Source: Eubacteriales bacterium (GTDB taxonomy: Bacteria; Bacillota; Clostridia; Oscillospirales; CAG-272). From it: a stretch of 64,000 nt of DNA. The DNA is taken from NCBI GenBank assembly GCA_045535815.1, contig JAZSMJ010000006.1:5430-69429 (forward strand), given 5' to 3'. The translations under genes and the position numbers were made by a program. The notes under the pieces were generated by a model that worked only from the letters and a program-made list of their open reading frames with translations, did not search any database and had not been told where the DNA came from. Below are positions 3,692 through 29,312 of the stretch, piece by piece; positions within the stretch are counted from its first letter, which is position 1, and every line of letters starts with the position of its first letter.

Positions 3692-3692
3692 A

Positions 3693-10624: not shown

Positions 10625-11605
10625 TTATTCTTGATAGGATGTTTCTTCATTTGTTTCATCTGAGGAAGAGTTCATCATATCAAAGTCGCTCGGAGCAACT
10701 GTTTCGGCTTCTTGCTCGGTGTCTTGTTCTTCTGACGTTTCGATAGTAATATCGCTGTTTTCCACCTCTAAGGGATCGCCCGAGTATTCTGAAATGATAA
10801 TGTCGCCACTATTTATCTTTGCGTTTATCTTTCTGTCGGAAAATCCTTCCGAAATTATATTCTGACCTGATGAAGTGCCGAACAGATAGATATTTCCGTT
10901 TGACGTATGAAGATCAAACAGCTCGTCTCCGACAGGTGAAATCTCACAGTTAAGATCTCCCTCATCCAATTCAATGTTATATTCGGGTATAACACAACCG
11001 ATAAAGTCCGCATCTCCGTTTTTTATGGAAACGTAAAGCTTGGAATCGGTATAAACACGGTCAAAGCAGACGTTTCCGTTTTCAATAATAACGGAATAAT
11101 TCGTTTGAGATGATATCGAATTTGCATTGAAGCTTCCGTTTGATATGTTAATATCAAAATGCTCGATATCGTCATCAGAAAGATATACGTTTATAATTCG
11201 GTCTCTTTCACTGTAGGATGAGCTCTTGAGAAGATGGCGCAGACCGTTATTCTTAACCGATATTATGGTATTGTAAGCAGATATTGTATCGGTTATGCTG
11301 ATTACAGAATCGGACGAGTTGGAAATCATATAGGAATATGGGGTGTAATTTACCATTTCTATATATGACGATTCCGTACTGCTGAGCAGATTGACTGTTG
11401 AAGTATGATCAATATCAATGATTATTTTTTTAATTGAGGATGGTATCTCTTCGGTAATTATATAATCACCGGTTTCGGAGTAATACTCATTGAAAATGTC
11501 AATTCCGTTTTCTATCGCACTGTCATAAGCAAGATATGAAGTGAGTATTCCTGCTCCGATTATCAGAATAGAGATAACAAGAAAAACTATAGATGCAACC
11601 TTCAT
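10625..11605 (-). CDS. Membrane-anchored DUF4097-like beta-strand repeat protein
   Basis: N-terminal TM helix, repeated IxNG/SNG beta units and an acidic tail; follows a DUF1700-like gene. Confidence 0.65.
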   Translation of the reverse strand: MKVASIVFLVISILIIGAGILTSYLAYDSAIENGIDIFNEYYSETGDYIITEEIPSSIKKIIIDIDHTSTVNLLSSTESSYIEMVNYTPYSYMISNSSDSVISITDTISAYNTIISVKNNGLRHLLKSSSYSERDRIINVYLSDDDIEHFDINISNGSFNANSISSQTNYSVIIENGNVCFDRVYTDSKLYVSIKNGDADFIGCVIPEYNIELDEGDLNCEISPVGDELFDLHTSNGNIYLFGTSSGQNIISEGFSDRKINAKINSGDIIISEYSGDPLEVENSDITIETSEEQDTEQEAETVAPSDFDMMNSSSDETNEETSYQE

Positions 11606-12528
11606 CTTCTTGCACTCTCCTTCCTGAAATGATAGATCATCCGACGGATCTTTTTAATGATAAACCGGTAAAGCTTTGACCAGTTCTTTATAATGAATGG
11701 CAAAAGTCTGACCGCAATATTATAAAGAACAATTCCGGAAAACAAGGTTGCCCCTATCATGGTAATTCCAATGCCGATCTCAAATATACCAGAGTAAAAT
11801 TCTGAAAACGTTTGAAGTATACCGAAAATGATAATAGCAGCGGATGAAACCGTACCTGCTGCAACAACTGCAATTAGCGTGACAAAGAAAGATGCTATCA
11901 TAATAGCGATAGAAGCGCACACTACGGCAAAAAGAGCAACCAGAATTACTGCAATCGGAAGAGTAACCGGAATTGTAAGTATCATTACCGTCCAAAACAA
12001 AGGTGATGAGCGGGTGCTTTCAATATCAAGTGCTTCAAATTTTATTTTCTTTTTGGACATAGTGGACGGCTTAAAGGTTTTTTCGGCAATTTCGTTTATT
12101 CTTTCCTCTTCTGTCAGGTTTATGACAGCGCCCTCCTTGGTTTTTGCATCCTCATCAAACAGGTTGAGAACGAAATCGTTTGATCGGACTGCATCGTCAA
12201 ATACTGCAGGATCAAACTGTATCGTATATGCCTCGGATGGATCAATATCGTCCTTATCAGAAGAAGTGTTGTTTGATTCTATAAAAGCGTCCGGTCTGAT
12301 ATTATTATCAACGTCATATGTATTTGATTTTTCTATCAGGTTACCTATGTAGTCAGAAATTTTTTCAATCTCTTTTTCGTTATTGACAAACTTTTTTTCA
12401 AAATCCTGATCAGAGATCGCAGAGAAAAAACGTTCCATCTGCTCCATATACGAAGCAAACGTTTCTTCAGGATATTCTCTCGCAGTAAGCTCAGCGCGAA
12501 GCGAAGACAAAAAATCGGTCTTATTCAT
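11602..12528 (-). CDS. DUF1700/HAAS-like membrane protein
   Basis: MNKTDFLSSLRAEL N-terminus and long hydrophobic C-terminal helices; an alternative TTG start exists at 12552. Confidence 0.65.
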   Translation of the reverse strand: MNKTDFLSSLRAELTAREYPEETFASYMEQMERFFSAISDQDFEKKFVNNEKEIEKISDYIGNLIEKSNTYDVDNNIRPDAFIESNNTSSDKDDIDPSEAYTIQFDPAVFDDAVRSNDFVLNLFDEDAKTKEGAVINLTEEERINEIAEKTFKPSTMSKKKIKFEALDIESTRSSPLFWTVMILTIPVTLPIAVILVALFAVVCASIAIMIASFFVTLIAVVAAGTVSSAAIIIFGILQTFSEFYSGIFEIGIGITMIGATLFSGIVLYNIAVRLLPFIIKNWSKLYRFIIKKIRRMIYHFRKESARR

Positions 12529-12656
12529 TATTTTTGCGTCGGAGATATCCAACTTTCCTTTCTACAGATTTTTATGATTGATTTTTTTCGATTGATATAT
12601 TATAATAATACTATCCTATTATTACAATTATATCAAAATTCGGAGATACTTTCAAT

Positions 12657-13274
12657 ATGAGAATGAGAAAAAAGAAGCACGGGGCGGAAAGAATTAACGC
12701 ATGTTCCGACATAATATTACATAATGCTGAGGAAATAGCCGATTTTCTTCCTGCACAGCTTGAAATTGGGTGCGGTAAGGGAAGCTTTATAATGGGTATA
12801 TCCGAGCGTTTCCCGGAAGAGCGATTTATAGCAATAGAGAAGATTGCCGACGTTGTGGTAACTGCACTTGAAAGAGCAGTGGCGGCAGAGAGAAAGAATA
12901 TAAGATTTCTTATTGCAGATGCGGATAAGCTTTGCGAGCTTTTTCCGGAGCATAGCATAAAAAGAATATATCTAAATTTTTCCGATCCGTGGCCCAAAGC
13001 AGGTCACGCTAAACGAAGACTTACCCACCGCAACTTTCTTGAAAGATATAAGAAGATACTGACAAAGGACGGATCCATATTCTTCAAAACCGACAACAGA
13101 GGCCTTTTTGATTTTTCTCTTGAAGAATTTGCCGAATGCGGTTTCCGCCTCGAAAATATTACCTACGATCTTCATAACAGTGAGTTTAATGCTGATAATA
13201 TCGTTACAGAATATGAGACGAATTTTTCGCAAAAAGGTTTCACTATAAACAGAGTTGAAGCATATCTTAAATAA
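12657..13274 (+). CDS. trmB: tRNA (guanine-N7)-methyltransferase
   Basis: LEIGCGKG, NFSDPWPK, HAKRRL, KTD and TEYE motifs. Confidence 0.97.
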   Translation: MRMRKKKHGAERINACSDIILHNAEEIADFLPAQLEIGCGKGSFIMGISERFPEERFIAIEKIADVVVTALERAVAAERKNIRFLIADADKLCELFPEHSIKRIYLNFSDPWPKAGHAKRRLTHRNFLERYKKILTKDGSIFFKTDNRGLFDFSLEEFAECGFRLENITYDLHNSEFNADNIVTEYETNFSQKGFTINRVEAYLK

Positions 13275-13278
13275 AACG

Positions 13279-13304
13279 AAAAGCCCTGCAAAAGCAGGGC
13301 TTTT
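13279..13304. terminator. Bidirectional intrinsic terminator (end of succinate operon / trmB)
   Basis: AAAAGCCCTGC-AAAA-GCAGGGCTTTT. Confidence 0.88.
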
Positions 13305-13315
13305 ATATTTGATTA

Positions 13316-14587
13316 TCAGAATAAGATTATCAAAAGCTGTGATACAAGTACTACCGATATAAGTGCTATCGGATACGTTGCTGCATAAGCAGCGGCAACG
13401 TCTTCGGTCTTTGCAACGCTGATAAGTGTACCGAGTGCAGGTGTTGAGGTCATTCCTCCTGTGATTGAGCCAAGGTTGTTGAGAAGGCTGAGCTTAAGAA
13501 CGTACTTAGCAAACAGGAATCCTATTAGCATCGGGAATATTGTCATTACAATACCATATACGAAGTACATAATATCAAAGTTAGCAACGAAGTCTGCGCC
13601 TCCGGGGATTCCGGCACCTACAAGGAAGAGCACAAGACCGAGCTCTCTGAAGAGCTTAAGTGTATGCTGATCGGGCATAATGCTGAGCTTACCGATGCGT
13701 CCGAAGTGACCAAGTATAAGTGCAACAAGAAGACATCCGCCGGTAGTCGTAAGCGAGAAGCAGGTTCCGCTAAGGCCTTGAGCTGAAAGCGGTATCTTGA
13801 TCTTGCCAACGAAAGTTCCGAGAACTGCCGCAAGAGCAAATACTGCAAATCCGTGTTCATCAAGCTTTAAAAGAGTGCCTGTAAAGGCGTTTTTCTTTTT
13901 GTCTGCTCCGTCATCCTTTAAAATAAGCTTTGATCTTTCAAGATCCATATCTGCTTTGGAAAGCTTAGGAATAAGCTGAACGAAGAGAACGACACCTATA
14001 ACTCCGAATATGTATGCAATTCCGTGACCTACGGACACAAGGCTTGTGAGCGAGGGGTCAACGGTTGCCTTTGCCGCAGAGAATGCAGGAGTTGAGGTAA
14101 GTGAACCCGAGAGCAGACCGACTATCATTGCTGTAAAGCCTTCGGATGTCTCTATGGATGAGCCGAAACCTATAGCTCTTCCGGTCATAATACAAGCAAC
14201 GGCAGAAAGTCCGCCGGCTACTATAATAACGAAGCCGAGAAGAACGTAGGATTTGAAGTTCTTCTTCATATTTCCGAAGAACTTGGGTCCTGCAATAAAA
14301 CCAACGGACGTAACGAAGAGTACAAGTCCGAGGTTTTCGATTATCTCAAGTGCCTGATTTAAGAAGTTTACCGATTCAGCCTCTCCCTTGATTATCATCT
14401 GTGATTCAAGAGGACCGATCAAAAGAGCACCGAAGAGAAGGGCAATAACGAATACGCCTGCATCCCCCAGAGATACGCCCTTAATGGTAATACGACCGAA
14501 TGCGTAACCGACAAAAAGTATGCCAAATACGCAGAATATTAAGAATGAAATACCTGTTACAGGGATAAAACCGCCAAATAAATTCAT
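13316..14587 (-). CDS. AspT/YidE/YbjL-family permease, candidate succinate exporter
   Basis: Duplicated GxxTSTPA motifs in two hydrophobic halves; last gene of the fumarate-reduction operon. Substrate is inferred from context. Confidence 0.8.
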   Translation of the reverse strand: MNLFGGFIPVTGISFLIFCVFGILFVGYAFGRITIKGVSLGDAGVFVIALLFGALLIGPLESQMIIKGEAESVNFLNQALEIIENLGLVLFVTSVGFIAGPKFFGNMKKNFKSYVLLGFVIIVAGGLSAVACIMTGRAIGFGSSIETSEGFTAMIVGLLSGSLTSTPAFSAAKATVDPSLTSLVSVGHGIAYIFGVIGVVLFVQLIPKLSKADMDLERSKLILKDDGADKKKNAFTGTLLKLDEHGFAVFALAAVLGTFVGKIKIPLSAQGLSGTCFSLTTTGGCLLVALILGHFGRIGKLSIMPDQHTLKLFRELGLVLFLVGAGIPGGADFVANFDIMYFVYGIVMTIFPMLIGFLFAKYVLKLSLLNNLGSITGGMTSTPALGTLISVAKTEDVAAAYAATYPIALISVVLVSQLLIILF

Positions 14588-14605
14588 GCTGTTATCTCCT
14601 CTTTA

Positions 14606-16201
14606 TCAAACCTTACGGGTGTAATTCGGAAGAAGCTTAGGAGAAACAACGTCTGTCTTTATACCTGCATCCTTAAGCTCCTGTGCGAACTTTTTAACGT
14701 GATCAACAGTAAGAGCACCGAGCTTAACTGATTTGGATTTTTCAGCAGCATTTTTACCTGCGCTACGTCCGAATACGATGATATCGAGCAGAGAGTTACC
14801 CATAAGTCTGTTTCTTCCGTGAATACCGCCAACAGCCTCACCGGCAACGTAAAGGTTTTCAACCGCAGACATACCGTCGGCAGAGATGTCAATACCGCCG
14901 TTCTGATAATGGAGTGTAGGATAAATAAGAATAGGTTCTTTTCTGATATCTATATCATACTTTGAGAACATATTGAGCATAGCGGGAATACGCTTTTCAA
15001 TAGTTCCTTCTCCGCCGATTATCTCGATCATGGGAGTATCGAGCCAAACGCCCTGACCCTCGGGAGTCTTAACGCCGTTGCCTCTGTCTGTGCATTCACG
15101 AATAATGGATGCCGCAGAAACGTCACGTGTTTCAAGAGGATGCATAAATGCTTCGCCGTTAGCGTTTATAAGCATAGCTCCGAGAGAACGAACCTTTTCG
15201 GTAACGAGTGCACCAAAGATCTGTTCAGGGAAAGCAGCTCCTGTAGGATGATACTGAAGGGTCTCAGCGTAAAGAAGCTTTGCGCCTGCTCTGTATGCGA
15301 GAACGAGACCGTCAGCGGTTGCACCGTAATGATTGGAGGTAGGAAAGCCCTGATAATGAAGTCTTCCTGCACCGCCCGTAGCAATAATTACTGTCTTAGC
15401 CTTAGCAATGGTGATCTCATTTGTCTCCATGTTGAGAAGAACAGCACCTGCTGCCTTGCCTTGGTCGTCAAGGATAATCTCTATAGCGGATGTAAAATCA
15501 ATTACGGGAATATTTCTGTTAAGAACCTCATCACGAAGAGTACGCATGATCTCTGCACCGGAATAGTCCTTTGCAGCGTGCATTCTCTTTCTTGATGTAC
15601 CGCCGCCGTGCGTGGTTACCATTGTACCGTCTTCAGCCTTGTCGAACTCAACTCCGAGCTCGTTCAGCCATTTGATAGCATCGGGAGCCTCACATACGAG
15701 TCTTGAAAGAAGCTCAGGCTTTGCGGCAAAGTGACCGCCACCGAAAGCATCGAGGTAATGGATAGCAGGGGAGTCGTTGGGTTTATCCGCAGCCTGAATT
15801 CCGCCTTCTGCCATCATTGTGTTAGCATCGCCTATGCGAAGCTTTGTTACCATCATAACGGAAGCACCGCTGTTATCTGCTTCGATAGCAGCTGAAGAGC
15901 CTGCTCCGCCACCGCCGATAACGAGAACGTCAACATCATAATCGGGATGCTTGAGGTCAAGCTTCATACCCTTTATGCGACTGTTACCCTGAAGAAGAGC
16001 TGCAAGCTCGTGAGGAACCTTGTCTCCCTTGTTGGGGCCAACCTGAAGAGTAGCAAATTCATTCTGCTTATAGTCGGGGTGATATGTAGCAAGAAGCTGT
16101 TCCTTTTCTTCTGCAGTCATTCTGCGAAGCTCCTTGCCGATACGGGAAGCACGAGTAGCCTCAACCTTTTTTATAGATTCGAGCATTTCTGTTGTATACA
16201 T
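14606..16201 (-). CDS. frdA: Soluble fumarate reductase flavoprotein (FrdA/TfrA-like)
   Basis: GGGGAG FAD site, AEGG, QYHPT, TEKVR, HYQNGG and HGRNRLMGNSL catalytic motifs. Confidence 0.82.
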   Translation of the reverse strand: MYTTEMLESIKKVEATRASRIGKELRRMTAEEKEQLLATYHPDYKQNEFATLQVGPNKGDKVPHELAALLQGNSRIKGMKLDLKHPDYDVDVLVIGGGGAGSSAAIEADNSGASVMMVTKLRIGDANTMMAEGGIQAADKPNDSPAIHYLDAFGGGHFAAKPELLSRLVCEAPDAIKWLNELGVEFDKAEDGTMVTTHGGGTSRKRMHAAKDYSGAEIMRTLRDEVLNRNIPVIDFTSAIEIILDDQGKAAGAVLLNMETNEITIAKAKTVIIATGGAGRLHYQGFPTSNHYGATADGLVLAYRAGAKLLYAETLQYHPTGAAFPEQIFGALVTEKVRSLGAMLINANGEAFMHPLETRDVSAASIIRECTDRGNGVKTPEGQGVWLDTPMIEIIGGEGTIEKRIPAMLNMFSKYDIDIRKEPILIYPTLHYQNGGIDISADGMSAVENLYVAGEAVGGIHGRNRLMGNSLLDIIVFGRSAGKNAAEKSKSVKLGALTVDHVKKFAQELKDAGIKTDVVSPKLLPNYTRKV

Positions 16202-16216
16202 TATTCTCAGCCTCCC

Positions 16217-16891
16217 TTATTTCTCAATGTCACGGTTGTTGTAGAGCTCTTTCATCTCGGAAATGGGCTTCTGCATAAGAGCCTCGATAAGCTCCTTGAA
16301 ATCACCGTTTTCAATTTCACGAACTCTGTCTTCAAGATGCTCTGATTTAGGTGCAAGATACTTACCGTTGATTCTTCTTGCGAGCAAAGCTACCTGAGGA
16401 TGAGATATTCCTGCAGGACAGCGTGAAGAGCAAACACCGCACATTACACAGTCAAAGGATTCTTCTGCGCACTTTTCAAAATCGCCTCTCTGAGCGTAAG
16501 CTATGTACTGCATAACGTTAAGATCCTGAGTACAGCTCTTTGTACAAGCATTACAACCGATACAGCTGTATATTTCGGGATAGAGCTGCATCATAACCTG
16601 CTCGGAAAGAGATACGGTGTTTATATCGTACACCTGCTTAACGAGCGGGAAGAAGGGAAGCATTGCGATATACATATCGTTTTCAACCTTTGTCTGGCAA
16701 GCAAGACAGGACTTGAGCTCACGCTCGCCCTTTATACGGTATATGGTAGCGCACGCACCGCAGAACCCGTTTCTGCATCCGCATCCTCTGACCAGCTGAT
16801 ATCCGGCATATTCCATAGCCTTCATTATTGTAAGATTTGACGGTACTTCATATTTCTTTCCCATCAAATATATATTTACCATTTCTTCCAT
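16217..16891 (-). CDS. frdB: Fumarate reductase Fe-S subunit (FrdB-like)
   Basis: CxCxxGxCGxC...C 2Fe-2S motif plus two CxxCxxCxxxC motifs; adjacent to the flavoprotein. Confidence 0.78.
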   Translation of the reverse strand: MEEMVNIYLMGKKYEVPSNLTIMKAMEYAGYQLVRGCGCRNGFCGACATIYRIKGERELKSCLACQTKVENDMYIAMLPFFPLVKQVYDINTVSLSEQVMMQLYPEIYSCIGCNACTKSCTQDLNVMQYIAYAQRGDFEKCAEESFDCVMCGVCSSRCPAGISHPQVALLARRINGKYLAPKSEHLEDRVREIENGDFKELIEALMQKPISEMKELYNNRDIEK

Positions 16892-16909
16892 ATCGATAGT
16901 CCTTTCAAA

Positions 16910-17734
16910 TCAATATTCATTCGGCATTTCATCGAGCTGATCGCAGCGGAAAACGGGACCGTCCTTGCAGACGTATTTATCACCGATATTACATCTGCCG
17001 CACTTTCCGATACCGCATTTCATCTTAAGCTCCATGGTAGTGAATACCTGAGTTTTATCAAAGCCGAGCTCGATAAGACCGGCAAGAGTGAATTTGATCA
17101 TTATCGGAGGACCGCATATGATAACGGTTTTGTTAGTATCAAAACCGAGCTCCTTTACATAATTGGGAACGAAACCGACATGACCGCTCCAGCCTTCCTG
17201 GGGATTGTCTATGGTGAGATGAACGTTAGTACCGTCCTCAGTGCACCATTCGTTTATGATCTCGCTGTAGTCAACGAGATCGTCCATTGATCTTGAGCCG
17301 TAAACTATATCAATTTTACCGTAATTTGCTCTGTTATCACGAACGTAATTGATAACGGAGCGGAGAGGAGCAAGTCCGATACCGCCGGCGATAAACAGAA
17401 GGTCTTTACCCTTGAAATCAGCTTCAACAGGGAAGCCGTTACCGTACGGTCCGCGTATAGTCAACTGCTGACCGGGCTCTATTTCATGGAGCCAACCCGA
17501 AAGACAACCGCATTTTTTGATGGAGAATTCCATGAAATCGGTGTTTGTAGGGGAGGAAGTTATTGAGAACATTGCTTCGCCAACACCGGGGATGGAAAGC
17601 ATAGCGCACTGACCGGGCATATGCTCAAAAACCTTTTTGCCGTCAAGACCGACAACTCTGAAGGTCTTAACGTCGGGAGTATCGATTCTTATATCGGTAA
17701 CGACACCGATAGCGGGTATAAGGGATTCATTCAT
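16910..17734 (-). CDS. flxA: FAD/NAD(P)H-binding oxidoreductase with 2Fe-2S (FlxA/AsrB-like)
   Basis: RGPYGNGF, AGGIGLAP, CGPPIM and CGIGKCGRC...CKDGPVF motifs. Confidence 0.82.
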   Translation of the reverse strand: MNESLIPAIGVVTDIRIDTPDVKTFRVVGLDGKKVFEHMPGQCAMLSIPGVGEAMFSITSSPTNTDFMEFSIKKCGCLSGWLHEIEPGQQLTIRGPYGNGFPVEADFKGKDLLFIAGGIGLAPLRSVINYVRDNRANYGKIDIVYGSRSMDDLVDYSEIINEWCTEDGTNVHLTIDNPQEGWSGHVGFVPNYVKELGFDTNKTVIICGPPIMIKFTLAGLIELGFDKTQVFTTMELKMKCGIGKCGRCNIGDKYVCKDGPVFRCDQLDEMPNEY

Positions 17735-18756
17735 CAGTCGTTACCTCCTAAAGCTTTCATTACTTTAACTATGTTCATAGATATAGGACACTTGTTTATG
17801 CATCTTCCGCAGCCAACGCATCCGAAGATACCCTCGTTGTTTTCGGGATAATAAACAAGCTTATGCATAAATCTCTGACGGAATCGTTCAAGCTGTGTAA
17901 GTCTGGGATTTCCGTGAGCCATCTTTGTGAAGTCGGAATACATACAGCTGTCCCAGCAACGGTATCTTCTGACACCGTCAGCGGTCTTAATGTCTCTAAC
18001 GTCATAGCACTGACAGGTAGGACATACGAAGGTACACGTTCCGCATCCGATACAAGCCTCGGAAAGCTCCTTCCATTTTTCATCGGAAAACAGCTTAAGA
18101 AGAACGTCTCCCTTAAACTTATCTGTTGAAAGGGAAGCAAGCGGAAGCTTTTTCATAATTTCGCCTATACGCTTCTTCTGTTCGTTTACTGCTTTATCGT
18201 CAGTATCTTCAAGAAGATCACTTATCTTTTCGATAAATGCATTACCTTTTTCGGTGAGCGCATTGAAGTAAATGAATTTGCCGTCCGAATAAGCCTCAAC
18301 GTCCCCACCGGGAGCAGCAGGGTCTATTCCGAAGGCTGTGCAGAAGCAGGACTCTCTGGGAGAGTTGCACGCCATAGTAACTATCGTGCCGTGCTCTCTG
18401 CGGTTTTTATAGTAGGTATCTACCGGATCGCAAAGGAAAACGCGATCAAGTATATCGAAGCTTTTTGCGTCACACGCACGGACACCGAAAACAACGAAAT
18501 CTTCTGTTTCACGGCGTATGTCTTTAACCTCAATGGTCTTTCCTTCAACTTTAAAATCAACGAGATTTTCGGTCTGAGGGAAGAAGAAATCCTTTGCGCT
18601 TCTTACTGTGTTGAGTGCGCCGGAAAGCTTTTTGCCATCCTCCCACTTTTCATAAGCTGCCTGACCGTTTTCTTTATCAACGGGAATGTAGAGCTCAGAG
18701 GAAGAAGCAACTATCTCAAACAGTGAATCTAATTTTTCATAAGGAAGCTTTTTCAT
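17734..18756 (-). CDS. flxB: 4Fe-4S protein (FlxB/AsrA-like)
   Basis: GVRACD, CFC, CIGCGTCTFVCPTCQC, RCWDSC and CVGCGRC motifs. Confidence 0.8.
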   Translation of the reverse strand: MKKLPYEKLDSLFEIVASSSELYIPVDKENGQAAYEKWEDGKKLSGALNTVRSAKDFFFPQTENLVDFKVEGKTIEVKDIRRETEDFVVFGVRACDAKSFDILDRVFLCDPVDTYYKNRREHGTIVTMACNSPRESCFCTAFGIDPAAPGGDVEAYSDGKFIYFNALTEKGNAFIEKISDLLEDTDDKAVNEQKKRIGEIMKKLPLASLSTDKFKGDVLLKLFSDEKWKELSEACIGCGTCTFVCPTCQCYDVRDIKTADGVRRYRCWDSCMYSDFTKMAHGNPRLTQLERFRQRFMHKLVYYPENNEGIFGCVGCGRCINKCPISMNIVKVMKALGGND

Positions 18757-18758
18757 AA

Positions 18759-19730
18759 TCAGTTATTCCCCCTTTCCTCAACAACGCTGGGTTCAGCATC
18801 ATCGAAGGTATAGCTTGTAAGGGGAGCAGTCGTAGTTGTATCATCGCCTGCCTGGAATTCACCGTAAAGCTCATTTATATCTTTGATGAACTTTCTGTTG
18901 AGAAGGTGTATCGGAATATGCTCGGGGCAAACTCTTGAGCATTCTCCGCAATCAGTACATCTGCCTGCAACGTGGAAGGCTCTTATAATATGGAACATAT
19001 TCTCTTCAAACGACTGAGAAGGAGCCTTGCTTGTAGTGCCGAGATCATCGTTATCGAAAACGCATCTCTCGCATGAGCACGCAGGACATACGTTTCTGCA
19101 AGCGTTACAGCGTATGCATCTTGACAGCTCATTCTGCCAGAACGCAAAGCGTTCATCGGGAGTCATATTTTCTATCTTAACGACCTCATCAAATCTTTCA
19201 GCACCTGTTTCTTCGCCGTTATCGCCGATTATTTCATCAAAGGCAACAAGCTTCTTTGACTTACAGCTTACGCATCTTTCAGCGAGAATATCTTTTTTGT
19301 CAATTGAAATATTTCCGCTTACAGTTTCAACGCTTATTGTCTTTCCGTCAGATGAAACTGAGAGTATAGCACTGTCAGCCTTATTCCTGAGGTATTCGGG
19401 AAGCGCCATACCGTCGCACTGAACGCCCACTATATAAACGTTTTCACGAATGATACGGTGTTCCTTTATAAGCTGATTGAAGCTGTATGTATCGCAGGGC
19501 TTTAAGAATGCAAGAATCTTTCCGCCCTTGCGGCTTTCTTTAATAAGATACTTTGAAAGATTTGCTCCGCAGAAATCGTTGAAAACAAAATCCTTCTGTA
19601 TCTCCTCAGCACTGTTGAAAACAGCAGGAGTAACGTCATAGCAAACGTCACCTAACTTCCAGCCTATAACACGGTCAACAGTACCGTTTTGGAGTAATTC
19701 GATTGCTTTATTTATCATTTTGCTTTGCAT
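18759..19730 (-). CDS. flxC: 4Fe-4S protein (FlxC-like)
   Basis: KPCD, CIRCNACRNVCPACSC and HVAGRCTDCGEC motifs. Confidence 0.8.
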   Translation of the reverse strand: MQSKMINKAIELLQNGTVDRVIGWKLGDVCYDVTPAVFNSAEEIQKDFVFNDFCGANLSKYLIKESRKGGKILAFLKPCDTYSFNQLIKEHRIIRENVYIVGVQCDGMALPEYLRNKADSAILSVSSDGKTISVETVSGNISIDKKDILAERCVSCKSKKLVAFDEIIGDNGEETGAERFDEVVKIENMTPDERFAFWQNELSRCIRCNACRNVCPACSCERCVFDNDDLGTTSKAPSQSFEENMFHIIRAFHVAGRCTDCGECSRVCPEHIPIHLLNRKFIKDINELYGEFQAGDDTTTTAPLTSYTFDDAEPSVVEERGNN

Positions 19731-20164
19731 CTCAAATCCTCCAATCTCTTGTTTTCGCCAAGCTTTGTAACAGTCTCAACGAATTCACTCATAGTAGCCG
19801 CAAATTTTGCACCTTCAGCAGCAGACACCCATTCAACTCTCGTTCTGCCTCTCTCTATTCCGAGATAGTCAAGCATACTGAAGAGAAGTGTCATTCTTCT
19901 GCGTGCAAAATAGTTACCTGAAGTGTAGTGACAGTCCCCGGGATGACATCCGCAGATTATAACACCGTCAGCTCCGCGCTGGAATGCACGAAGAATGAAC
20001 ATGGGGTTAACTCTGCAGGAGCAGGGAACACGAATTATTTTTACGTCAGCAGGATAGCTGAGTCTGTTTGTTCCGGCAAGGTCGGCACCGGCATACGAAC
20101 ACCAGTTACAGCAAAAAGCAACTATCTTGGGCTTAAATGTGCCATTTGTTTCATTTATTTGCAT
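19715..20164 (-). CDS. flxD: MvhD/FlxD 2Fe-2S subunit
   Basis: FCCNWCSYAGAD, RVPCS, GCHPGDCHY and WVSAAE motifs. Confidence 0.9.
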   Translation of the reverse strand: MQINETNGTFKPKIVAFCCNWCSYAGADLAGTNRLSYPADVKIIRVPCSCRVNPMFILRAFQRGADGVIICGCHPGDCHYTSGNYFARRRMTLLFSMLDYLGIERGRTRVEWVSAAEGAKFAATMSEFVETVTKLGENKRLEDLRCKAK

Positions 20165-22143
20165 ATTGCATCTACCTCCGCCATGATCTGTTTGTTAGAG
20201 AATCCCTTAAGATCCATTGCACCGGAATGACATGCTACGGTACAAGCACCACATCCCTGACATACGGCAGGGTTAACAGAAGCAACTCTTCTGATAGCAG
20301 TGGTTCTGTCGGGCATTCTGAATTCTTTATCAATATAGGTTATTGCACCGTAAGGACATACCTTTTCACAAGCGGAACAACCGTTACACATCATCTCGTT
20401 TGAGGTAGCAACGCAAGGATTGCAGGTAAGCTTATCTTTCGCAAGCAGTCCTATAACCTTAGCGGCAGCTGCGCCTGCCTGAGATACTGTTTCGGGGATA
20501 TCCTTGGGTCCCTGGCAGGTACCGGAAAGGAATACGCCTGCTGTAGGACTTTCTACGGGACGGAGCTTGGGGTGAGCTTCTGTAAAGAAGTCGTTTGTAT
20601 CCATACTTGCAGTAAGCATGGTAGCAAGAGGTCTTGCGCTGGGATCAGGCTCTATTGCAGCAGCAAGAACGACCATATCTGCTTCGATCTTGAGCTGCTT
20701 GTCAGCAATAAGGTCGGAAGCCTGAACGGTCAGCTTGCCATCGTGAGGAGCAACCTTTCCAACCATTCCCTTGATATAATGTACGCCGTATTCCTCAACT
20801 GCTCTGCGGTAGAACTCGTCAAAGTTCTTACCGGGAGTTCTTACGTCTATGTAGAATACGTAAACGTCAGTATCGGGATATTTCTCCCTTGTAAGCATTG
20901 CATGCTTTGCCGTATACATACAGCAAATCTTGGAGCAGTACTGCTTTCCGCATCCTGACGTATCACGTGAGCCTACACACTGAACGAATACGATAGTATG
21001 AGGATGTGTTCCGTCTGAGGGACGGAGAAGCTTACCTGCGGTAGGACCGGAGGCATTCATTATTCTTTCATATTCAAGAGAGGTAACAACGTCAGGGCTC
21101 TGAGAATATGCAAACTCATCGTAATTGTCAAGCTTAATGGGATTAAAGCCTGTTGCAACGACTATTGCACCGTACTGCTGTTCAATTATTTCATCCTTCT
21201 GCTTGTAATCGATAGCTCCTGCGGTACATACCTTTGAGCAAACACCGCACTTGCCACTCTTCAGCATTGTACAATAATCTGCGTCAATCGTAGCAACCTT
21301 CGGAACTGCCTGAGCAAAGGGAATATAAATTGCACGTCTTGTGTCCATTCCGAGGTTAAATTCATTCGGAACCTTTTTCTGAGGACATTTTTCTGTACAA
21401 AGTCCGCAACCTGTACAAAGACTTTCGTTTACGTAGCGAGCCTTTTTCTTTATGGATACCGTAAAGTTTCCTACGAATCCCTTAACAGCCTCAACCTCGC
21501 TGTAAGCGTATATATTTATCTTATCATGCTGAGCAGCATCAACCATCTTAGGTGTAAGTATGCAGGCAGCACAGTCGAGCGTAGGGAAGGTCTTGTCAAG
21601 CTGAGTCATCTTTCCGCCGATAGTAGGAGTTTTTTCAACTATATCTACTTCAAATCCTGCGTCTGCAATATCGAGAGCTGTCTGAATACCTGCGATACCG
21701 CCTCCGATAACGAGCGCACGCTTTGTAACGGGGCTTTCACCTGCTGTAAGCGGAGCGTTAAGATGCACCTTCGCAATAGCAGTTCTTGCAAGGATTATAG
21801 CCTTCTCTGTACCGATCTCCATATCCTTATGTATCCACGAGCACTGCTCACGGATGTTTGCAATCTCAACCATATAAGGGTTAAGACCTGCCGCAGCAGC
21901 AGTCTTGCGGAAGGTAGCCTCATGCATACGGGGAGAGCAGGAGCAAACAACTATTCCGGTAAGGGCATAGTCTCTTATTGCATCCTTTATAATGTTCTGA
22001 CCGGCTTCAGAACACATATACTGATAATCGGTGGAGAAAACTACACCCGGTTCCTTTGCCGCAGCTTCAGCAACGGCTTTAACGTCAACAGTTCCGGCAA
22101 TATTGCTTCCGCACCAGCATACAAATACGCCAATTCTCTGCAT
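20155..22143 (-). CDS. hdrA: Heterodisulfide reductase subunit A (bifurcating flavoprotein)
   Basis: GVFVCWCG, CSPRMHE, NIREQCSW, GGGIAG, QCVGSRD, CSKICC and GPKDIP motifs. Confidence 0.95.
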   Translation of the reverse strand: MQRIGVFVCWCGSNIAGTVDVKAVAEAAAKEPGVVFSTDYQYMCSEAGQNIIKDAIRDYALTGIVVCSCSPRMHEATFRKTAAAAGLNPYMVEIANIREQCSWIHKDMEIGTEKAIILARTAIAKVHLNAPLTAGESPVTKRALVIGGGIAGIQTALDIADAGFEVDIVEKTPTIGGKMTQLDKTFPTLDCAACILTPKMVDAAQHDKINIYAYSEVEAVKGFVGNFTVSIKKKARYVNESLCTGCGLCTEKCPQKKVPNEFNLGMDTRRAIYIPFAQAVPKVATIDADYCTMLKSGKCGVCSKVCTAGAIDYKQKDEIIEQQYGAIVVATGFNPIKLDNYDEFAYSQSPDVVTSLEYERIMNASGPTAGKLLRPSDGTHPHTIVFVQCVGSRDTSGCGKQYCSKICCMYTAKHAMLTREKYPDTDVYVFYIDVRTPGKNFDEFYRRAVEEYGVHYIKGMVGKVAPHDGKLTVQASDLIADKQLKIEADMVVLAAAIEPDPSARPLATMLTASMDTNDFFTEAHPKLRPVESPTAGVFLSGTCQGPKDIPETVSQAGAAAAKVIGLLAKDKLTCNPCVATSNEMMCNGCSACEKVCPYGAITYIDKEFRMPDRTTAIRRVASVNPAVCQGCGACTVACHSGAMDLKGFSNKQIMAEVDAICK

Positions 22144-22157
22144 TGTTTTCTCCTCCT

Positions 22158-22550
22158 TTATTTACTGTATTTACGGAATGCGCTGACGATAGCCTGCTGA
22201 GGCAGATCTTCGTCAAGCATTTCCGGGATCATATCTGCTTTTAAGTGATTTTCGCCCTTCTGGCGTATCACGGAAAGTCTTACTGCTTCAATAAGCTTTG
22301 CAGGCTCAACGCCTCTGGGACAGCGGTCAACACAAGCAAAGCAGGTAAGGCATTTATATATCGATTCAGACTTCATAAGCTTTTCTATGTCGCCCGTTTC
22401 TACCATATATACGAACTGATGAGGATGGTATTCCATTTCATCATATGAAGGGCAGGTGCCCGAGCATTTGCCGCAACGCATACACTTCAGGGGATTTACT
22501 CCGCTTGATCTGAGGATCTGTTCTTTTGTTAATTCCTTATTAAAAGCCAT
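22158..22550 (-). CDS. hdrC: Heterodisulfide reductase subunit C
   Basis: CMRCGKCSGTCP and CLTCFACVDRCPRG. Confidence 0.9.
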   Translation of the reverse strand: MAFNKELTKEQILRSSGVNPLKCMRCGKCSGTCPSYDEMEYHPHQFVYMVETGDIEKLMKSESIYKCLTCFACVDRCPRGVEPAKLIEAVRLSVIRQKGENHLKADMIPEMLDEDLPQQAIVSAFRKYSK

Positions 22551-22552
22551 GA

Positions 22553-23338
22553 TCAGTCCTCCTTAACTCCGAGCGCTTCTGCAAGGAGCGCCGTGAAATA
22601 TTCAACGGGTATATCCGATCCGCCGTTCTTCTTTAAGTTGTAAAGACAGAGCGGACAAGCGGTAACTATCATATCAGCACCGTTACCCTTTGCACTCTCA
22701 ACAACAGTAGAGCTCTTTTGTGCAGCAATCTTTTTATCTTCAAGCGTTATGTATCCGCCGCAACATTCGTTACGGTAGGGATAAATAACCGGCTCAGCAC
22801 CGATTGCACGAATGAAATCCTCAATTATGCGAGGATTTTCGGGGTTGTCGAACTGCATATCTGCTGAAGGACGAAGGAGAAGGCAGCCGTAATAAGCGGC
22901 TATCTTCTTACCTGTAAGCGGATTTACAACCTTTTCCTTTATTTTATCAAAACCGATACAGTCACGAAGCATCTCAAGGTAATGAAGCACCTTGGTTTCT
23001 CCGCCGTAAGGAATCTCAGGAGCAATGTAATTATTTACCTTGGTACGAATCTCCTCATCCTTAGCCATATCGATATTTACTCTTTTAATAACGTTATGAC
23101 AAGCAGAGCAAAGCGTTATAAGATCTTCTCCGGCTTCTTTTGCAGACATAAGAGCACGGACAGAAGAGAGCTTTGTTGCTATTTCGTCTTTGGCGACCGG
23201 ATAAACGGCACCGCAGCACTGCCAATCAGGCAATTCTTTAAGCTCAACGCCGAGAGCTTCAGCACTGCGTCTTGCGTATCTGTCAAGATCAACAGCCTTG
23301 TTCTTCAGCGTACAGCCCGGATAATAACTGAATTTCAT
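22553..23338 (-). CDS. hdrB: Heterodisulfide reductase subunit B (CCG domains)
   Basis: YYPGC, WQCCG, YYGC, ECCGG and ACPLC; start set at MKFSYY after GGAGG. Confidence 0.93.
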   Translation of the reverse strand: MKFSYYPGCTLKNKAVDLDRYARRSAEALGVELKELPDWQCCGAVYPVAKDEIATKLSSVRALMSAKEAGEDLITLCSACHNVIKRVNIDMAKDEEIRTKVNNYIAPEIPYGGETKVLHYLEMLRDCIGFDKIKEKVVNPLTGKKIAAYYGCLLLRPSADMQFDNPENPRIIEDFIRAIGAEPVIYPYRNECCGGYITLEDKKIAAQKSSTVVESAKGNGADMIVTACPLCLYNLKKNGGSDIPVEYFTALLAEALGVKED

Positions 23339-23351
23339 GTTTTCCTCCAAA

Positions 23352-24722
23352 TCAGACCATCTGCTCGGGATGGAATACTTCATCAAACTTTTCAGGTGTA
23401 AGGAAGCCAAGCTCAACGCAGGCTTCTTTAAGGGATATGTTATCCTTAAATGCTTTCTTTGCAGTCTTAGCAGCGTTATCATATCCTATATAAGGATTGA
23501 GCGCCGTAACGAGCATAAGAGAATTATGAAGATTGTGATGCATCTTTTCTCGGTTAGCCTTGATTCCTGTAACACAGTTGTCGTTAAAGGATATAATTCC
23601 ATCTGCAAGAAGTCTTACAGACTGAAGGAAGTTATATATGCAAACCGGCATAAATACGTTAAGCTCGAAATTACCCTGCGATGCAGCCATACCGACAGCA
23701 ACGTCGTTAGCAATTACCTGAACTGCAACCATAGTCATAGATTCACACTGAGTGGGGTTGACCTTACCGGGCATAATTGACGAGCCGGGCTCGTTTTCGG
23801 GAATGAATATCTCACCAAGACCGTCTCTCGGACCGCTTGCGAGCCATCTTACGTCATTTGCAATCTTCATAAGGTTTGCTGCAAGAGCCTTAAGAGCACC
23901 GTGAGCGAACACGAGCTCATCCTTTGATGTAAGAGCATGGAATTTATTTTCGGCAGTAACGAAGCTCTTGCCTGTAAGCTCGGAAACAACTGACGCTACC
24001 TTTTCAGCAAATCCCTTGGGTGCGTTAAGTCCTGTTCCGACTGCTGTACCGCCAAGCGCAAGCTCCTTGAGACCGGAGAGAGCAAGCTCAAGCTGACCCT
24101 TAGTCTTTTCTATCATATTTCTCCAACCGGATATCTCCTGAGAGAATTTTATGGGAGTTGCATCCTGAAGATGAGTTCTTCCGCTCTTAACGATGCCCTC
24201 GTTCTCTTCCTCAAGTCTCTTGAGAGTAGCTAAAAGCTTATCCATAGCAGGGAAGAGCTTATCCTCAATCGAGATTACCGCAGCAATATGCATTGCAGTG
24301 GGGAAAGTGTCATTAGATGACTGAGACATATTTATATCGTCATTAGGATGGAGAAGCTTTTTGCCTGCGATCTCATTTCCTCTGTTGGCGATGACCTCGT
24401 TTGCGTTCATATTTGACTGAGTTCCGCTTCCGGTCTGCCATACAACGAGAGGAAAATGTTCATTCAGCAAGCCGGCAATAACCTCATCACATGCCTTCTT
24501 TATTGCGTCAAGCTTTTCATTTGTCATTTTTTCGGGCTTTATCGAGTTGTTTGCGATTGCAGCCGCTTTCTTGAGTATACCGAAAGCGTGAGTGATCTCT
24601 CGGGGCATTACCTCAACGCCTATCTTGAAATTCTGAAAGCTTCTCTGTGTCTGTGCAGCCCAATACTTGTCCGCAGGGACCTGCATCTCACCCATAGAGT
24701 CTTTTTCAATACGATATTCCAT
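23352..24722 (-). CDS. fumC: Class II fumarate hydratase
   Basis: [16 protein letters not shown] and [15 protein letters not shown] motifs. Confidence 0.97.
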
Positions 24723-24756
24723 GCTTTACGAGCCTCGTTTCTATATCTGAATTTGA

Positions 24757-25704
24757 TTAAATGTTAACTGATTTTATAATTTCCTTAAGTGTATCAGCAC
24801 TGTGACGCAGAAGCTGAACCTCTTTGTCCTGAAGGGGAGTATATATCTTACCCTTGCTACCTTGATTTCCGACAAGCGTCAGCGTGCTGAGACATACGTC
24901 TTCAATGCCGTATTCACCGTGCATCATTGTGGAAACTGTAAGAACTGTATCTACACTACTGAGAAGACACTTGCAGAGATGGCAAACCGAGATTGAAACG
25001 GCATAGAACGTAGCGCCTTTTCCTGCAATGATCTTAGCACCGGAGGTACGAACGTAATTTTCAACCTCGTCAAAGTTGAGTTGAGCCTTACCGGATCCTG
25101 TGCTTGCAACGTATTTCTGGAAGTTTTCAATCTGAATATCCGAAATGGATGCAAGAGACCACGGAACGAACGAAGTATCTCCGTGTTCACCGAAAACGCA
25201 AGCGTGAACGTTTTTCTGGCTAACGCCGAAATGCTCGGCAATGTTTGTACGGAGTCTTGCAGTATCAAGAATTGTACCTGAACCGATAATCTGGTTTTCA
25301 GGCAGACCGGAGAGCTTTGTGAACGCATATGTAAGTATGTCAACAGGATTGCTGACGATAACGTACTTAGACGTGGGAGCGTACTTTGTTATTTCAGGTA
25401 TGATCTGCTTGATAATAGAAATGTTTGTCTGCGTGAGGTCAAGTCTTGTCTGACCGGGCTTTCTCGCAATACCGGATGTGATAATAACGATATCCGAACC
25501 TGCAGCATCGGAGTAATCACCTGCTGTGATAGAGATCGGATTACAGAAGGGAGTGCCCTGACTAATATCAATTGCTTCGCCTATTGCTTTTTCCTTTTTG
25601 ATATCGATCATAACAACCTCTGTTGCTATTCCGGTAACAGCCAGTGAATATGCAATTGTAGCGCCGACGCTTCCGGCACCAATGATAGAAATTTTTGTGC
25701 TCAT
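24757..25704 (-). CDS. mdh: LDH-like malate dehydrogenase
   Basis: GAGSVG, NPVD, LDTAR and GEHGD motifs. The substrate loop GIARKPGQTR has Arg at the specificity position (Gln in LDH), and the gene precedes fumC. Confidence 0.8.
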   Translation of the reverse strand: MSTKISIIGAGSVGATIAYSLAVTGIATEVVMIDIKKEKAIGEAIDISQGTPFCNPISITAGDYSDAAGSDIVIITSGIARKPGQTRLDLTQTNISIIKQIIPEITKYAPTSKYVIVSNPVDILTYAFTKLSGLPENQIIGSGTILDTARLRTNIAEHFGVSQKNVHACVFGEHGDTSFVPWSLASISDIQIENFQKYVASTGSGKAQLNFDEVENYVRTSGAKIIAGKGATFYAVSISVCHLCKCLLSSVDTVLTVSTMMHGEYGIEDVCLSTLTLVGNQGSKGKIYTPLQDKEVQLLRHSADTLKEIIKSVNI

Positions 25705-25795
25705 AATGGTACTTCCTCTTACAATTTAATAATTTATTTATTCACATGCCGTGAAATACAGGCAAGCATTTACAAACCGATTTTCCGGCAATTAT

Positions 25796-25823
25796 ATTAT
25801 AACACAAACTCTTATTTTCTCAA
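25796..25823 (-). promoter_or_regulatory. Putative sigmaA promoter of the mdh-fumC-hdr-flx-frd operon
   Basis: Minus strand TTGAGA-16 nt-TATAAT with an extended TG. Confidence 0.5.
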
Positions 25824-26045
25824 AGAGGCATTATAATGAATATTATATAATATATTGCTTTTTTTTGTGCAACTTTTACACAAAAATTAAAAAAATGCGA
25901 AAATGTTACAAAATAAGCCAAATTGAAATTGACAAGATCTTATAAATAATGTTAAAAAGCAACATTTTTGCGAAGCTATTAACATTTATATCATAATAAA
26001 GGATTCAGTGTATTTGTTGAAAATGACAAATAAGAATATTTTAAA

Positions 26046-26855
26046 TCAGACATCAAGATCAAGGAATCTTATAGCGTTTTTACTGTATATTTTTTCATAC
26101 AGATCAGCACTGAGCTCAAGAGATTCAAGTGCAATTTTTTCGCTGTCTGCACCGTACCACGGAGTGTCGCTTCCAAACAGTAATTTATCCGGATCATGCT
26201 CGCAAATGACTCGTTTTCCAAGCTCAATATCAGCCTCCGGAGCGCAGAGTAGTGAGGTGTCCAGCCATATGTTTTTGCCACAGAGCATGCGAAGAACCGT
26301 ATCCCAGCATTTGAATCCGCCAAGATGTGCAGCAACGAGCCTCATCTCCGGAAATTTATTTATAACGCAGGCAATAGCCTCAGGCGGTGCGTGCATAAAA
26401 TTCGGCGAATAAAAATCGTTTCCTGCGTGTGTAATTACGAACAGTCCGTTCTCAATGCATCCCTTGAATATGGGATCGAATTTGTCGGAATCTATTGTTG
26501 TTTCCATATAGTCGGGGTGAATCTTTATACCTTTTATTCCTGCATTGCGAAGCCTTTTGAGCTCTTTTTTTATAACTTCTTCATCGCAATGAGGATTGAC
26601 AGATCCAAGTGCTATCATCCTTTTTTGTGTATTGTTAAGGTCTATTGCAAAGTTATTGACGTTTGTCATCTGACGGGGATTAGTTGCAATATTGCAAACA
26701 ACGCTTATATCGACTCCGTCTTCATCCATTTTACGAAGATTGTCGGAAACGGTTCCGTTCGTAATGTTCAGGATGTTTCCTATTGCAGATAGCTTCGGGA
26801 TGGCTTTTTCGGCTACTGCATCAGGGAAGCAATGGGTGTGAAAATCTATCAGCAT
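26046..26855 (-). CDS. Amidohydrolase-family (Amidohydro_2) metal-dependent hydrolase
   Basis: IDFHTH, GIKIHP, AAHLGG and LFGSDTPW motifs. Confidence 0.88.
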   Translation of the reverse strand: MLIDFHTHCFPDAVAEKAIPKLSAIGNILNITNGTVSDNLRKMDEDGVDISVVCNIATNPRQMTNVNNFAIDLNNTQKRMIALGSVNPHCDEEVIKKELKRLRNAGIKGIKIHPDYMETTIDSDKFDPIFKGCIENGLFVITHAGNDFYSPNFMHAPPEAIACVINKFPEMRLVAAHLGGFKCWDTVLRMLCGKNIWLDTSLLCAPEADIELGKRVICEHDPDKLLFGSDTPWYGADSEKIALESLELSADLYEKIYSKNAIRFLDLDV

Positions 26856-27095
26856 TTTATACCTTTCTTGAACTTGGAAAAATAAACAATTTCTCATTTA
26901 AATGATACCATATATAGCAACAATATTTGTGAACAAAACTTTAATTTTATTAACAAAATAGAAATTAAATAATGTTGTAATTATTAACCTTTTTGTAATA
27001 TAATGTAAAATATAATGGGGTTATATTTATTGAAGTAAGAAATAATCCTAATAAAATGAAAAATATTTTTTAAATATACGGAGGAATATTACACA

Positions 27096-28909: not shown

Positions 28910-28940
28910 TTCGATTACGATAATTCGGAGGTAATTTATA

Positions 28941-29312
28941 ATGAGAAAGTTTAATATAACGGTTAACGGAACAGTATATGAGGTAGAGGTTGAGGAAGTA
29001 TCTGCAGAGGGCACTTCTGCTCCCGTAGCTACACCTGTAGCAAAAGCAGCTCCTGCTGCTGCACCCAAAGCTGCACCCAAGGCATCCGGTGCTGCAGGCG
29101 GCGTAAAGGTAAGTGCTCCTATGCCCGGTACAATTATGAAGGTAACCGTTTCGGTAGGACAGAAGGTTTCAAAGGGAGACCTTGTCTGCGTGCTTGAAGC
29201 AATGAAGATGGAAAACGAAATTTTTGCTCCCGCTGACGGTACTGTAGCATCAATTGAAGTAACTCAGGGTGCGTCTGTTGGAACCGGAGATATCATTGCT
29301 ACTCTTAACTGA
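28941..29312 (+). CDS. Biotin carboxyl carrier protein
   Basis: EAMKM biotinylation motif and an Ala/Pro linker. Confidence 0.93.

Follow-up and report, generated by a model that had tools for sequence, protein, structure and literature searches.

The window analysed here, 64,000 nucleotides (nt) of DNA from an Eubacteriales bacterium (assembly GCA_045535815.1, contig JAZSMJ010000006.1, positions 5,430 to 69,429 of the forward strand), carries a twelve-gene operon on the minus strand (13316-25704). The operon probably encodes, at a rough probability of 0.55, a soluble, bifurcating fumarate reductase of nine subunits that is driven by reduced nicotinamide adenine dinucleotide (NADH) and reduces ferredoxin, together with a route for succinate export. 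From 5' to 3' the genes are mdh, fumC, hdrB, hdrC, hdrA, flxD, flxC, flxB, flxA, frdB, frdA and a gene for an AspT-type permease. The interpretation, drawn from sequence comparison, is plausible and at the stage of a proposal; the hypothesis of a bifurcating fumarate reductase is not new, having been in print since 2019. The genome to which the window belongs is a gut-type Clostridia assembly of 2.25 Mb in 87 contigs and is 96.66% complete.

In the proposed scheme, phosphoenolpyruvate would be carboxylated to oxaloacetate by a GTP-dependent phosphoenolpyruvate carboxykinase (GTP-PEPCK), and oxaloacetate would be converted in the cytoplasm to malate by a malate dehydrogenase (MDH) resembling lactate dehydrogenase (LDH), to fumarate by FumC, and finally to succinate, which would leave through the AspT-type permease. 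The step from fumarate to succinate would be carried out by the soluble nine-subunit assembly. Electrons from NAD(P)H would enter at FlxA and be relayed by FlxB, FlxC and FlxD (MvhD) to the flavin of HdrA. A downhill branch would then run from HdrA through HdrC, HdrB and FrdB to the non-covalent flavin adenine dinucleotide (FAD) of FrdA and on to fumarate, and an uphill branch would reach ferredoxin by way of HdrA's ferredoxin-type domains, for a net reaction of 2 NADH + fumarate + oxidised ferredoxin -> 2 NAD+ + succinate + reduced ferredoxin. The ferredoxin so reduced would be re-oxidised by Rnf, yielding an ion gradient, or by [FeFe] hydrogenases. For modules of the Flx-Hdr type the proposed role is to divide the electron pairs of NADH between ferredoxin and a disulfide. 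The available text of PMC5861303 gives -320 mV for NADH and an E0' of about +33 mV for fumarate; by these potentials, fumarate surpasses a disulfide by far as an electron sink and could easily pay for ferredoxin reduction. Since no quinone is apparent, the scheme would provide the energy benefit of fumarate respiration without one. That the nine proteins form one complex, that electrons follow this order, that bifurcation takes place, and that HdrB acts as a relay and not as a disulfide reductase is what we infer from the evidence laid out below.

The flavoprotein that would reduce fumarate, FrdA (14606..16201, minus strand; 531 amino acids, aa), matches FAD_binding_2 with 231 bits and is the sole full-length member of that family in the genome. 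Its AlphaFold2 model (mean predicted local distance difference test, pLDDT, 76; predicted template modelling score, pTM, 0.83) finds E. coli FrdA (1kf6_A) as the best fold in the Protein Data Bank (PDB), with an E-value of 1.5e-25 and template modelling (TM) scores of 0.65/0.60; as modelled, FrdA has the FrdA/SdhA fold. The residues that bind substrate and donate the proton in fumarate reductases, H318 (QYHPTG), R359 (ETRD), H431 (LHYQNGG) and R465 (GRNRL), align with those of SdhA/FrdA and are invariant in 46/46 sequences. Equally invariant (46/46) is Asn127 (GDANTMMAEGG), which replaces the histidine that holds FAD covalently in complex II. The covalent-FAD histidine supports succinate oxidation, and its lack fits a soluble enzyme that works in the direction of reduction only, so Asn127 fits such an enzyme. 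Among NCBIfam models the best match is TfrA (NF004900), at 344 bits against a cut-off of 718 and therefore too low for assignment to TfrA; SdhA/FrdA models reach about 286 bits and NadB 272 bits, both also under their cut-offs, and Succ_DH_flav_C (Pfam) is not matched. Residues 1-87 of FrdA form a conserved N-terminal extension, modelled with confidence (pLDDT 70-92) as chiefly helical, with short strands, which has no Pfam match and is common to the distant relatives P0121, P0127, P0134 and P0160 (40-57% identity).

Its partner FrdB (16217..16891, minus strand; 224 aa; Fer2_4, Fer2 and Fer4_7 in Pfam) has an N-terminal 2Fe-2S domain followed by two complete CxxCxxCxxxC motifs of a 4Fe-4S dicluster. 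Across 45 sequences 14 cysteines are invariant and one, C62, is nearly so; the invariant ones include C37, C39, C44, C47, C65, C141 and those of both CxxCxxCxxxC motifs. FrdB gives weak N-terminal matches to TfrB/SdhB in NCBIfam and carries the genome's sole Fer2_3-like match (E 9.8e-4). It is without a CCG domain in Pfam, and so differs from TfrB-type proteins, in which that domain is fused. No segment of transmembrane grade, two Rossmann-type stretches aside, occurs in the 11 non-permease proteins of the operon, and neither Sdh_cyt nor DsrC (PF04358) has a match anywhere in the genome, in agreement with the earlier note, which had found the operon to lack a membrane anchor, a cytochrome b and DsrC.

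All seven subunit types of FlxABCD-HdrABC are present in the operon with the expected domains and motifs. HdrB (22553..23338, minus strand; 261 aa) has two CCG domains (PF02754 twice), which are the sole CCG matches in the whole genome, and all 10 cysteines of its CCG motifs are invariant in 46/46 sequences. A profile of 46 orthologues, compared with the PDB, finds nothing but genuine HdrB chains of methanogens and aligns with them from end to end (E 4e-45 to 1e-39). The start of hdrB most likely lies at 23338 (MKFSYYPGC) and not at 23482, because the longer reading frame of 309 aa would share 131 nt with fumC, and 45 orthologues have the start of the short form. HdrC (22158..22550, minus strand; 130 aa) has two 4Fe-4S motifs whose 8 cysteines are invariant in 46/46 sequences, and its matches are TIGR03290-like, Fer4_17 and Fer4_8. 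HdrA (20155..22143, minus strand; 662 aa) combines FAD and ferredoxin-type domains (Pyr_redox_2 and Fer4 in Pfam); the HdrA2 model NF040770 covers residues 3-661 with 793 bits, under its cut-off of 1100, and this model includes a fused MvhD domain, the C-terminal part that FlxD matches. FlxD itself (19715..20164, minus strand; 149 aa) is MvhD-like, with 185 bits to FlpD (PF02662).

The remaining Flx proteins are FlxC (18759..19730, minus strand; 323 aa), an iron-sulfur protein with 17 cysteines that matches Fer4_8, Fer4_9 and Fer4_17; FlxB (17734..18756, minus strand; 340 aa), an iron-sulfur protein of the sulfhydrogenase-beta/AsrA-like type with a Fer4_22 match, for which the NCBIfam models ShyB, HydB and AsrA all score under their cut-offs; and FlxA (16910..17734, minus strand; 274 aa), which has NAD(P)H/FAD-binding and 2Fe-2S domains (NAD_binding_1, FAD_binding_6, DHODB_Fe-S_bind) and is AsrB-, HydG- and PyrK-like in NCBIfam. 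The high-potential acceptor of FlxABCD-HdrABC systems is DsrC or another disulfide; DsrC (PF04358) has no match in the 96.66%-complete genome, and the acceptor proposed here is fumarate.

The genes that flank this core point to a path from oxaloacetate to exported succinate. Gene 1 (24757..25704, minus strand; 315 aa; Ldh_1_N and Ldh_1_C in Pfam) scores above the cut-off of both the L-LDH and the MDH models of NCBIfam, a detail beyond the earlier gene list. In enzymes of this family the residue at position 102 sets the specificity (Q102R rule), glutamine marking an LDH and arginine an MDH. Gene 1 has arginine at this position in GIARKPGQTRLDL, like 1y6j, while the LDH 4m1q carries glutamine, and the arginine is present in 44/44 orthologues, a count made by reading of sequence stretches; on account of this residue the sequence is assigned to a malate dehydrogenase of the LDH-like type. 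The second gene encodes a class II fumarate hydratase, FumC (23352..24722, minus strand; 456 aa; Lyase_1 and FumaraseC_C), with 721.5 bits to TIGR00979 against a cut-off of 664.75. At the other end stands the permease of the AspT/YidE/YbjL type (13316..14587, minus strand; 423 aa), which matches PF06826 twice (184.9 bits) and TIGR01625 with 129 bits against a cut-off of 72, so that the duplicated Asp-Al_Ex membrane domain is in place, and which has ten hydrophobic segments. It is shorter than the AAEx models of 553-562 aa, which match in part only. The AspT-type family includes a known succinate exporter, according to the available text of PMC9527358, and the permease is a candidate for the same role. 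The order oxaloacetate, malate, fumarate, succinate, export, which the earlier note had read from the gene list, is thus supported by the sequence evidence.

The twelve genes are consecutive open reading frames (ORFs) separated by gaps of 34, 13, 2, 14, 2, 18, 15 and 18 nt, as calculated from the coordinates, and by three overlaps of 10, 16 and 1 nt. The ORF list, Pfam and NCBIfam confirm the tight packing on the minus strand and the gene families as first described, with two corrections, the start of hdrB and the double LDH/MDH match of gene 1. The best promoter-like site on the operon strand within 12500-27200 (25823-25796, minus strand) is TTGAGA-16-TATAAT with a TG extension and 11/12 consensus matches; it sits in the 341-nt gap 5' of mdh, about 92 nt before the first ATG, and a ribosome-binding stretch rich in purines precedes that ATG by a few nt. 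The scan returned 43 promoter-like sites against 27 +/- 5.1 in shuffled sequences, weaker sites inside the operon included. A bidirectional terminator-like hairpin (13279..13304; 11-bp stem, 6 GC, T-runs on both strands), the strongest of the region scanned, lies 11 nt past the permease stop and 4 nt past a convergent methyltransferase gene. The view that the operon runs from one promoter region to one terminator therefore holds at the level of consensus matches, which is what both signals are.

The linkage of an anchor-less fumarate reductase to Flx-Hdr, central to the earlier note, finds support in the sequences of related loci. An FrdA scan of species-representative genomes gave a set of 80 loci at 72-83% identity, nearly all from assemblies of gut, rumen or caecum Clostridia. 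The nine genes from hdrB through hdrC, hdrA, flxD, flxC, flxB, flxA and frdB to frdA are colinear on one strand in 57/57 loci with enough upstream DNA. The outer genes are kept less strictly: fumC is directly upstream of the core in 50/55 loci with room for it, mdh (at least 50% identity) is upstream in 39/52, and an AspT-type permease follows within 400 nt in 40/64. In eight further genomes, taken from long contigs, the block from mdh to flxA is kept in 8/8, and frdB comes next in 7/8; frdA falls outside these stretches, and the locus in which frdB was unmatched (L095) ends near frdB. The nine core subunits keep 74-94% identity from family to family.

In an even sample of the window's class, FrdB (E <= 1e-40) is found in 96/399 scored genomes and 54/217 genera, two genomes being unscored, and every match has at least 66% identity. 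FrdB is thus highly conserved (66-90% identity) across many families, yet patchy: it is present in just 2/14 genomes of the window's own order and in most genomes of several other families, a pattern that horizontal spread of the whole operon would fit. Of 8000 candidates scored in a protein collection, at least 7914 are FrdB clusters (at 90% identity), the top 120 of which have at least 82% identity. Where FrdB records are named, the names are generic, such as '4Fe-4S dicluster domain-containing protein', 'heterodisulfide reductase subunit C' and 'succinate dehydrogenase/fumarate reductase-like Fe-S protein'. Since the fumarate reductase subunits carry such names, metabolic reconstructions of gut communities may miss this succinate route.

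The contents of the genome fit a quinone-free process. No UbiA-family prenyltransferase was found in it (control: the family is present in 14/14 genomes), and the organism appears to make no quinone. Of the genomes sampled from the class, 4/96 with FrdB and 110/303 without it have a UbiA-family match; these are plain counts over related genomes that are not independent. The independence from quinones that the earlier note had suggested thus agrees with the lack of a UbiA-family match in this genome and in 92/96 FrdB-bearing genomes. The genome has one GTP-PEPCK and no match to an ATP-dependent PEPCK; methylmalonyl-CoA mutase was also not found in it, so succinate is probably an end product. 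For re-oxidation of ferredoxin there are three RnfD/NqrB-family matches and three [FeFe]-hydrogenase matches. An obligatory or general role for Rnf as the outlet was considered and is ruled out by the class sample, in which RnfD occurs in 66/96 carriers of FrdB and is no commoner there than among the non-carriers (250/303). The hypothesis is accordingly sharpened to one in which the ferredoxin outlet varies between hosts.

Fused proteins among the relatives of the two fumarate reductase subunits also bear on how these are arranged. P0122 (727 aa) is a divergent, full-length FrdB-FrdA fusion, with 39% identity to FrdB over 221 residues and 57% to FrdA. Of 24 longer FrdB relatives, 11 have FlxA-type domains and 6 have domains of the FAD-binding type. 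Seven of the 24 were inspected, five of them FlxA-FrdB forms. P0281 and P0271 are clean in-frame read-throughs from FlxA into FrdB, and the difference between their linkers suggests independent losses of the stop codon; the junctions of the three other FlxA-FrdB forms look like frameshifts. P0273 fuses the N-terminal half of HdrA with FrdB, and in P0286 FrdB is joined to FrdA across a deletion. The eleven FlxA-FrdB proteins (P0271-P0283) belong to one clade with a cysteine-rich, MSECTCH-type N-terminus of FlxA.

A stricter form of the proposal is put forward tentatively, at less than even odds: the nine proteins would make one hard-wired machine in which the two non-cubane clusters of HdrB, having given up disulfide reduction, relay electrons from HdrC to FrdB, fumarate is the direct high-potential acceptor of a bifurcation based on HdrA, and the whole is the main quinone-free route to succinate in about one quarter of Clostridia species. 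One hard-wired complex is favoured because a thiol shuttle needs a site on the Frd side that oxidises the thiol, for which FrdB lacks the CCG domain fused in methanogen TfrB and the genome holds no spare CCG protein, because frdBA is never apart from flx-hdr in the loci examined, and because fusions exist, the last being weak evidence that may in part be an assembly artefact. In its place, Flx-Hdr might bifurcate NADH electrons to ferredoxin and to a diffusible disulfide, of low molecular weight or on a protein, the resulting thiol being re-oxidised by fumarate on FrdAB, after the manner of thiol:fumarate reductase in methanogens. The full conservation of both HdrB CCG motifs, the full-length alignment of HdrB with genuine heterodisulfide-reducing HdrB and the position of TfrA as the best NCBIfam match of FrdA all speak for such a thiol shuttle, as does the statement, in the accessible part of PMC7282089, that Flx-Hdr electrons go 'to ferredoxin (and thiols)'. 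It is nevertheless quite unlikely: FrdB lacks a CCG domain, the genome offers neither a further CCG protein that could oxidise the thiol nor a DsrC match, and the 57/57 adjacency of frdBA to flx-hdr and the fusions of FrdB to FlxA and to FrdA fit one complex better. As HdrB is the genome's sole CCG protein, a separate thiol-oxidising site of the Tfr type is lacking. The earlier note had left open the choice between direct reduction and a thiol intermediate; the single CCG protein, the synteny and the fusions lean towards the direct path without settling the choice. Taken together, the counts sharpen the hypothesis towards a quinone-free, thiol-free, hard-wired complex.

The same complex might also work as a plain soluble NADH:fumarate oxidoreductase, with Hdr and Flx as an electron wire and no ferredoxin reduced. 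Transfer from NADH to fumarate is strongly exergonic by itself, given the potentials in PMC5861303, FlxA-FrdB fusions would permit a short path from FlxA through FrdB to FrdA, and RnfD is unmatched in 30/96 carriers. An uncoupled wire makes it hard to explain why nine subunits, among them a full HdrA with both ferredoxin-type domains, are kept at 74-94% identity, and in the available text of PMC7282089 hydrogen (H2) abolished succinate formation in Pseudoclostridium thermosuccinogenes; this alternative is considered unlikely. Highly unlikely is a flavoprotein with another substrate or direction, that is, an L-aspartate oxidase, another enoate reductase, or succinate oxidation with confurcation, even though FrdA is under cut-off everywhere, its NadB score (272 bits) is close to those of the Frd models (285-344) and the permease family is named for aspartate:alanine exchange. 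In most loci fumC and mdh share the operon, the dicarboxylate-binding histidine and arginine residues of FrdA are conserved, and asparagine stands for the covalent-FAD histidine in 46/46 sequences, which by the rule given above argues against the oxidative direction. The L-aspartate oxidase reading in particular is rejected, since the genome gave no match for NadA and the neighbouring genes are fumC and mdh.

Several observations nonetheless weigh against a bifurcating fumarate reductase as proposed here. Because FrdA scores under the cut-off of every NCBIfam Frd, Sdh and NadB model, we can only infer its substrate. The likeness of FrdB to SdhB is weak, with a profile E-value of about 3e-3 for the 2Fe-2S part, while the best profile match of the dicluster part is RnfC. 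A Foldseek search with the FrdB model (pLDDT 80, pTM 0.46) gives TM scores of about 0.25 for SdhB/FrdB chains and 0.40 for HdrC, and RnfC chains are matched as well, all of them being weak global fold matches. With the 10 CCG cysteines invariant, the disulfide site of HdrB is kept and may still handle a thiol. RnfD is unmatched in 30/96 carriers, several of the fused forms look like frameshift or assembly artefacts, and the link to ferredoxin is only assumed in the available text of PMC7282089 (Koendjbiharie et al. 2020).

Around the operon the window holds other genes of related metabolism. Divergent from it, on the plus strand (27096-31941), is a five-gene cluster for a Na+-translocating biotin decarboxylase, made up of Carboxyl_trans, OAD_gamma, a biotinyl carrier, OAD_beta and an OadA-like HMGL/PYC_OADA protein, which acts on or near the same oxaloacetate pool as the operon. 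As a part of the system it was rejected, because it stands beside the operon in 0/8 other genomes, and the adjacency seems particular to the window's genome. An Amidohydro_2 gene (26046-26897) lies on the operon strand 341 nt upstream of mdh, with the promoter-like site between the two; none of the 8 other genomes checked has a homologue of it in front of mdh. Three genes for 2-oxoacid:ferredoxin oxidoreductase (3158-5509, minus strand; POR gamma, TPP_enzyme_C and POR_N/PFOR_II) are also ferredoxin-linked. Beyond the operon terminator are two adjacent ORFs of 326 and 316 aa (10625-12552, minus strand), neither with a Pfam match at E <= 1e-5.

Taken by itself, the operon is a clean, complete example with mdh at its 5' end, and the value of a single window is modest; what the analysis adds comes from the counts, namely the 57/57 synteny, the presence in about one quarter of the class and the near-absence of UbiA in carriers, together with the single CCG protein, asparagine in place of the covalent-FAD histidine and the lack of Rnf in about one third of carriers. 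If the proposal is true, fumarate would be one more driver of flavin-based bifurcation besides the few known, among them crotonyl-CoA and heterodisulfide, and it would become clear how quinone-less Clostridia gain energy from succinate formation. The hard-wired form would be a new reaction class for such bifurcation and the main quinone-free succinate route in about one quarter of Clostridia species, many of them from gut or rumen.

The literature found on a link between Flx-Hdr and a fumarate reductase consists of PMC7282089 and the tubeworm-symbiont papers; the same searches, with most subscription journals outside their coverage, returned no biochemical test of the link, nor any report that the operon is widespread among gut Clostridia. 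The closest relative by description is the 'succinate operon' of P. thermosuccinogenes, which, in the available text of PMC7282089, consists of a fumarate hydratase gene, a seven-gene Flx-Hdr set, a two-gene Frd and a putative succinate transporter, and is up-regulated about 4-fold under CO2 limitation. That text reports as well that succinate formation is abolished under H2 and credits the idea of bifurcation to a 2019 preprint (10.20944/preprints201912.0288.v1). The earlier note had thus rightly pointed to a flx-hdr-frd cluster in this organism, and the mechanism, which it held to be unsettled, had already been proposed there. Gene set, gene order and mechanism are the same going by that description, the comparison with CDQ83_RS03315-03365 being one of text and not of sequences; the operon in the window has an additional LDH-like mdh at its 5' end, and its host is a small-genome (2.25 Mb), gut-type organism and not a thermophile.

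In tubeworm symbionts and Thioflavicoccus mobilis, flxABCD-hdrABC, korABCD and tfrAB have independently been proposed to form a complex, as described in the available text of PMC6315080. There too Flx-Hdr is linked to an anchor-less putative fumarate reductase and direct electron shuttling is proposed. These organisms are Gammaproteobacteria, and the kor genes are interspersed in a carbon-fixation cluster of the reverse tricarboxylic acid cycle with a 2-oxoglutarate:ferredoxin oxidoreductase (PMC6315080, available text); in contrast, the operon described here is without kor genes and would serve the succinate branch of a fermentation, together with mdh, fumC and an exporter.

FrdABCD of E. coli (1kf6) shares with the operon the FrdA fold and the catalytic residues. 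It differs in having the FrdC/D anchor, the covalent-FAD histidine and a quinone, whereas the operon has neither FrdC/D nor a cytochrome b anchor, FrdA lacks that histidine, FrdB has two complete CxxCxxCxxxC motifs, and the genome yielded no gene for quinone synthesis. FlxABCD-HdrABC of Desulfovibrio vulgaris reportedly has the same seven subunit types, with DsrC as its proposed acceptor; here the order is reversed (hdrBCA-flxDCBA), frdBA is attached and DsrC was not found in the genome. TfrAB of Methanothermobacter is said to be soluble and anchor-less, with a TfrB that joins SdhB-like clusters to an HdrB-like CCG part. FrdA departs from TfrA in its score (344 against the cut-off of 718), its 87-aa N-terminal extension and the lack of a Succ_DH_flav_C match, and the CCG domains are carried by the separate HdrB of an HdrABC set. 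Like TfrAB, the operon's fumarate reductase has no anchor and TfrA is the best match of its FrdA, and FrdB and HdrB together supply the parts that are reportedly joined in TfrB.

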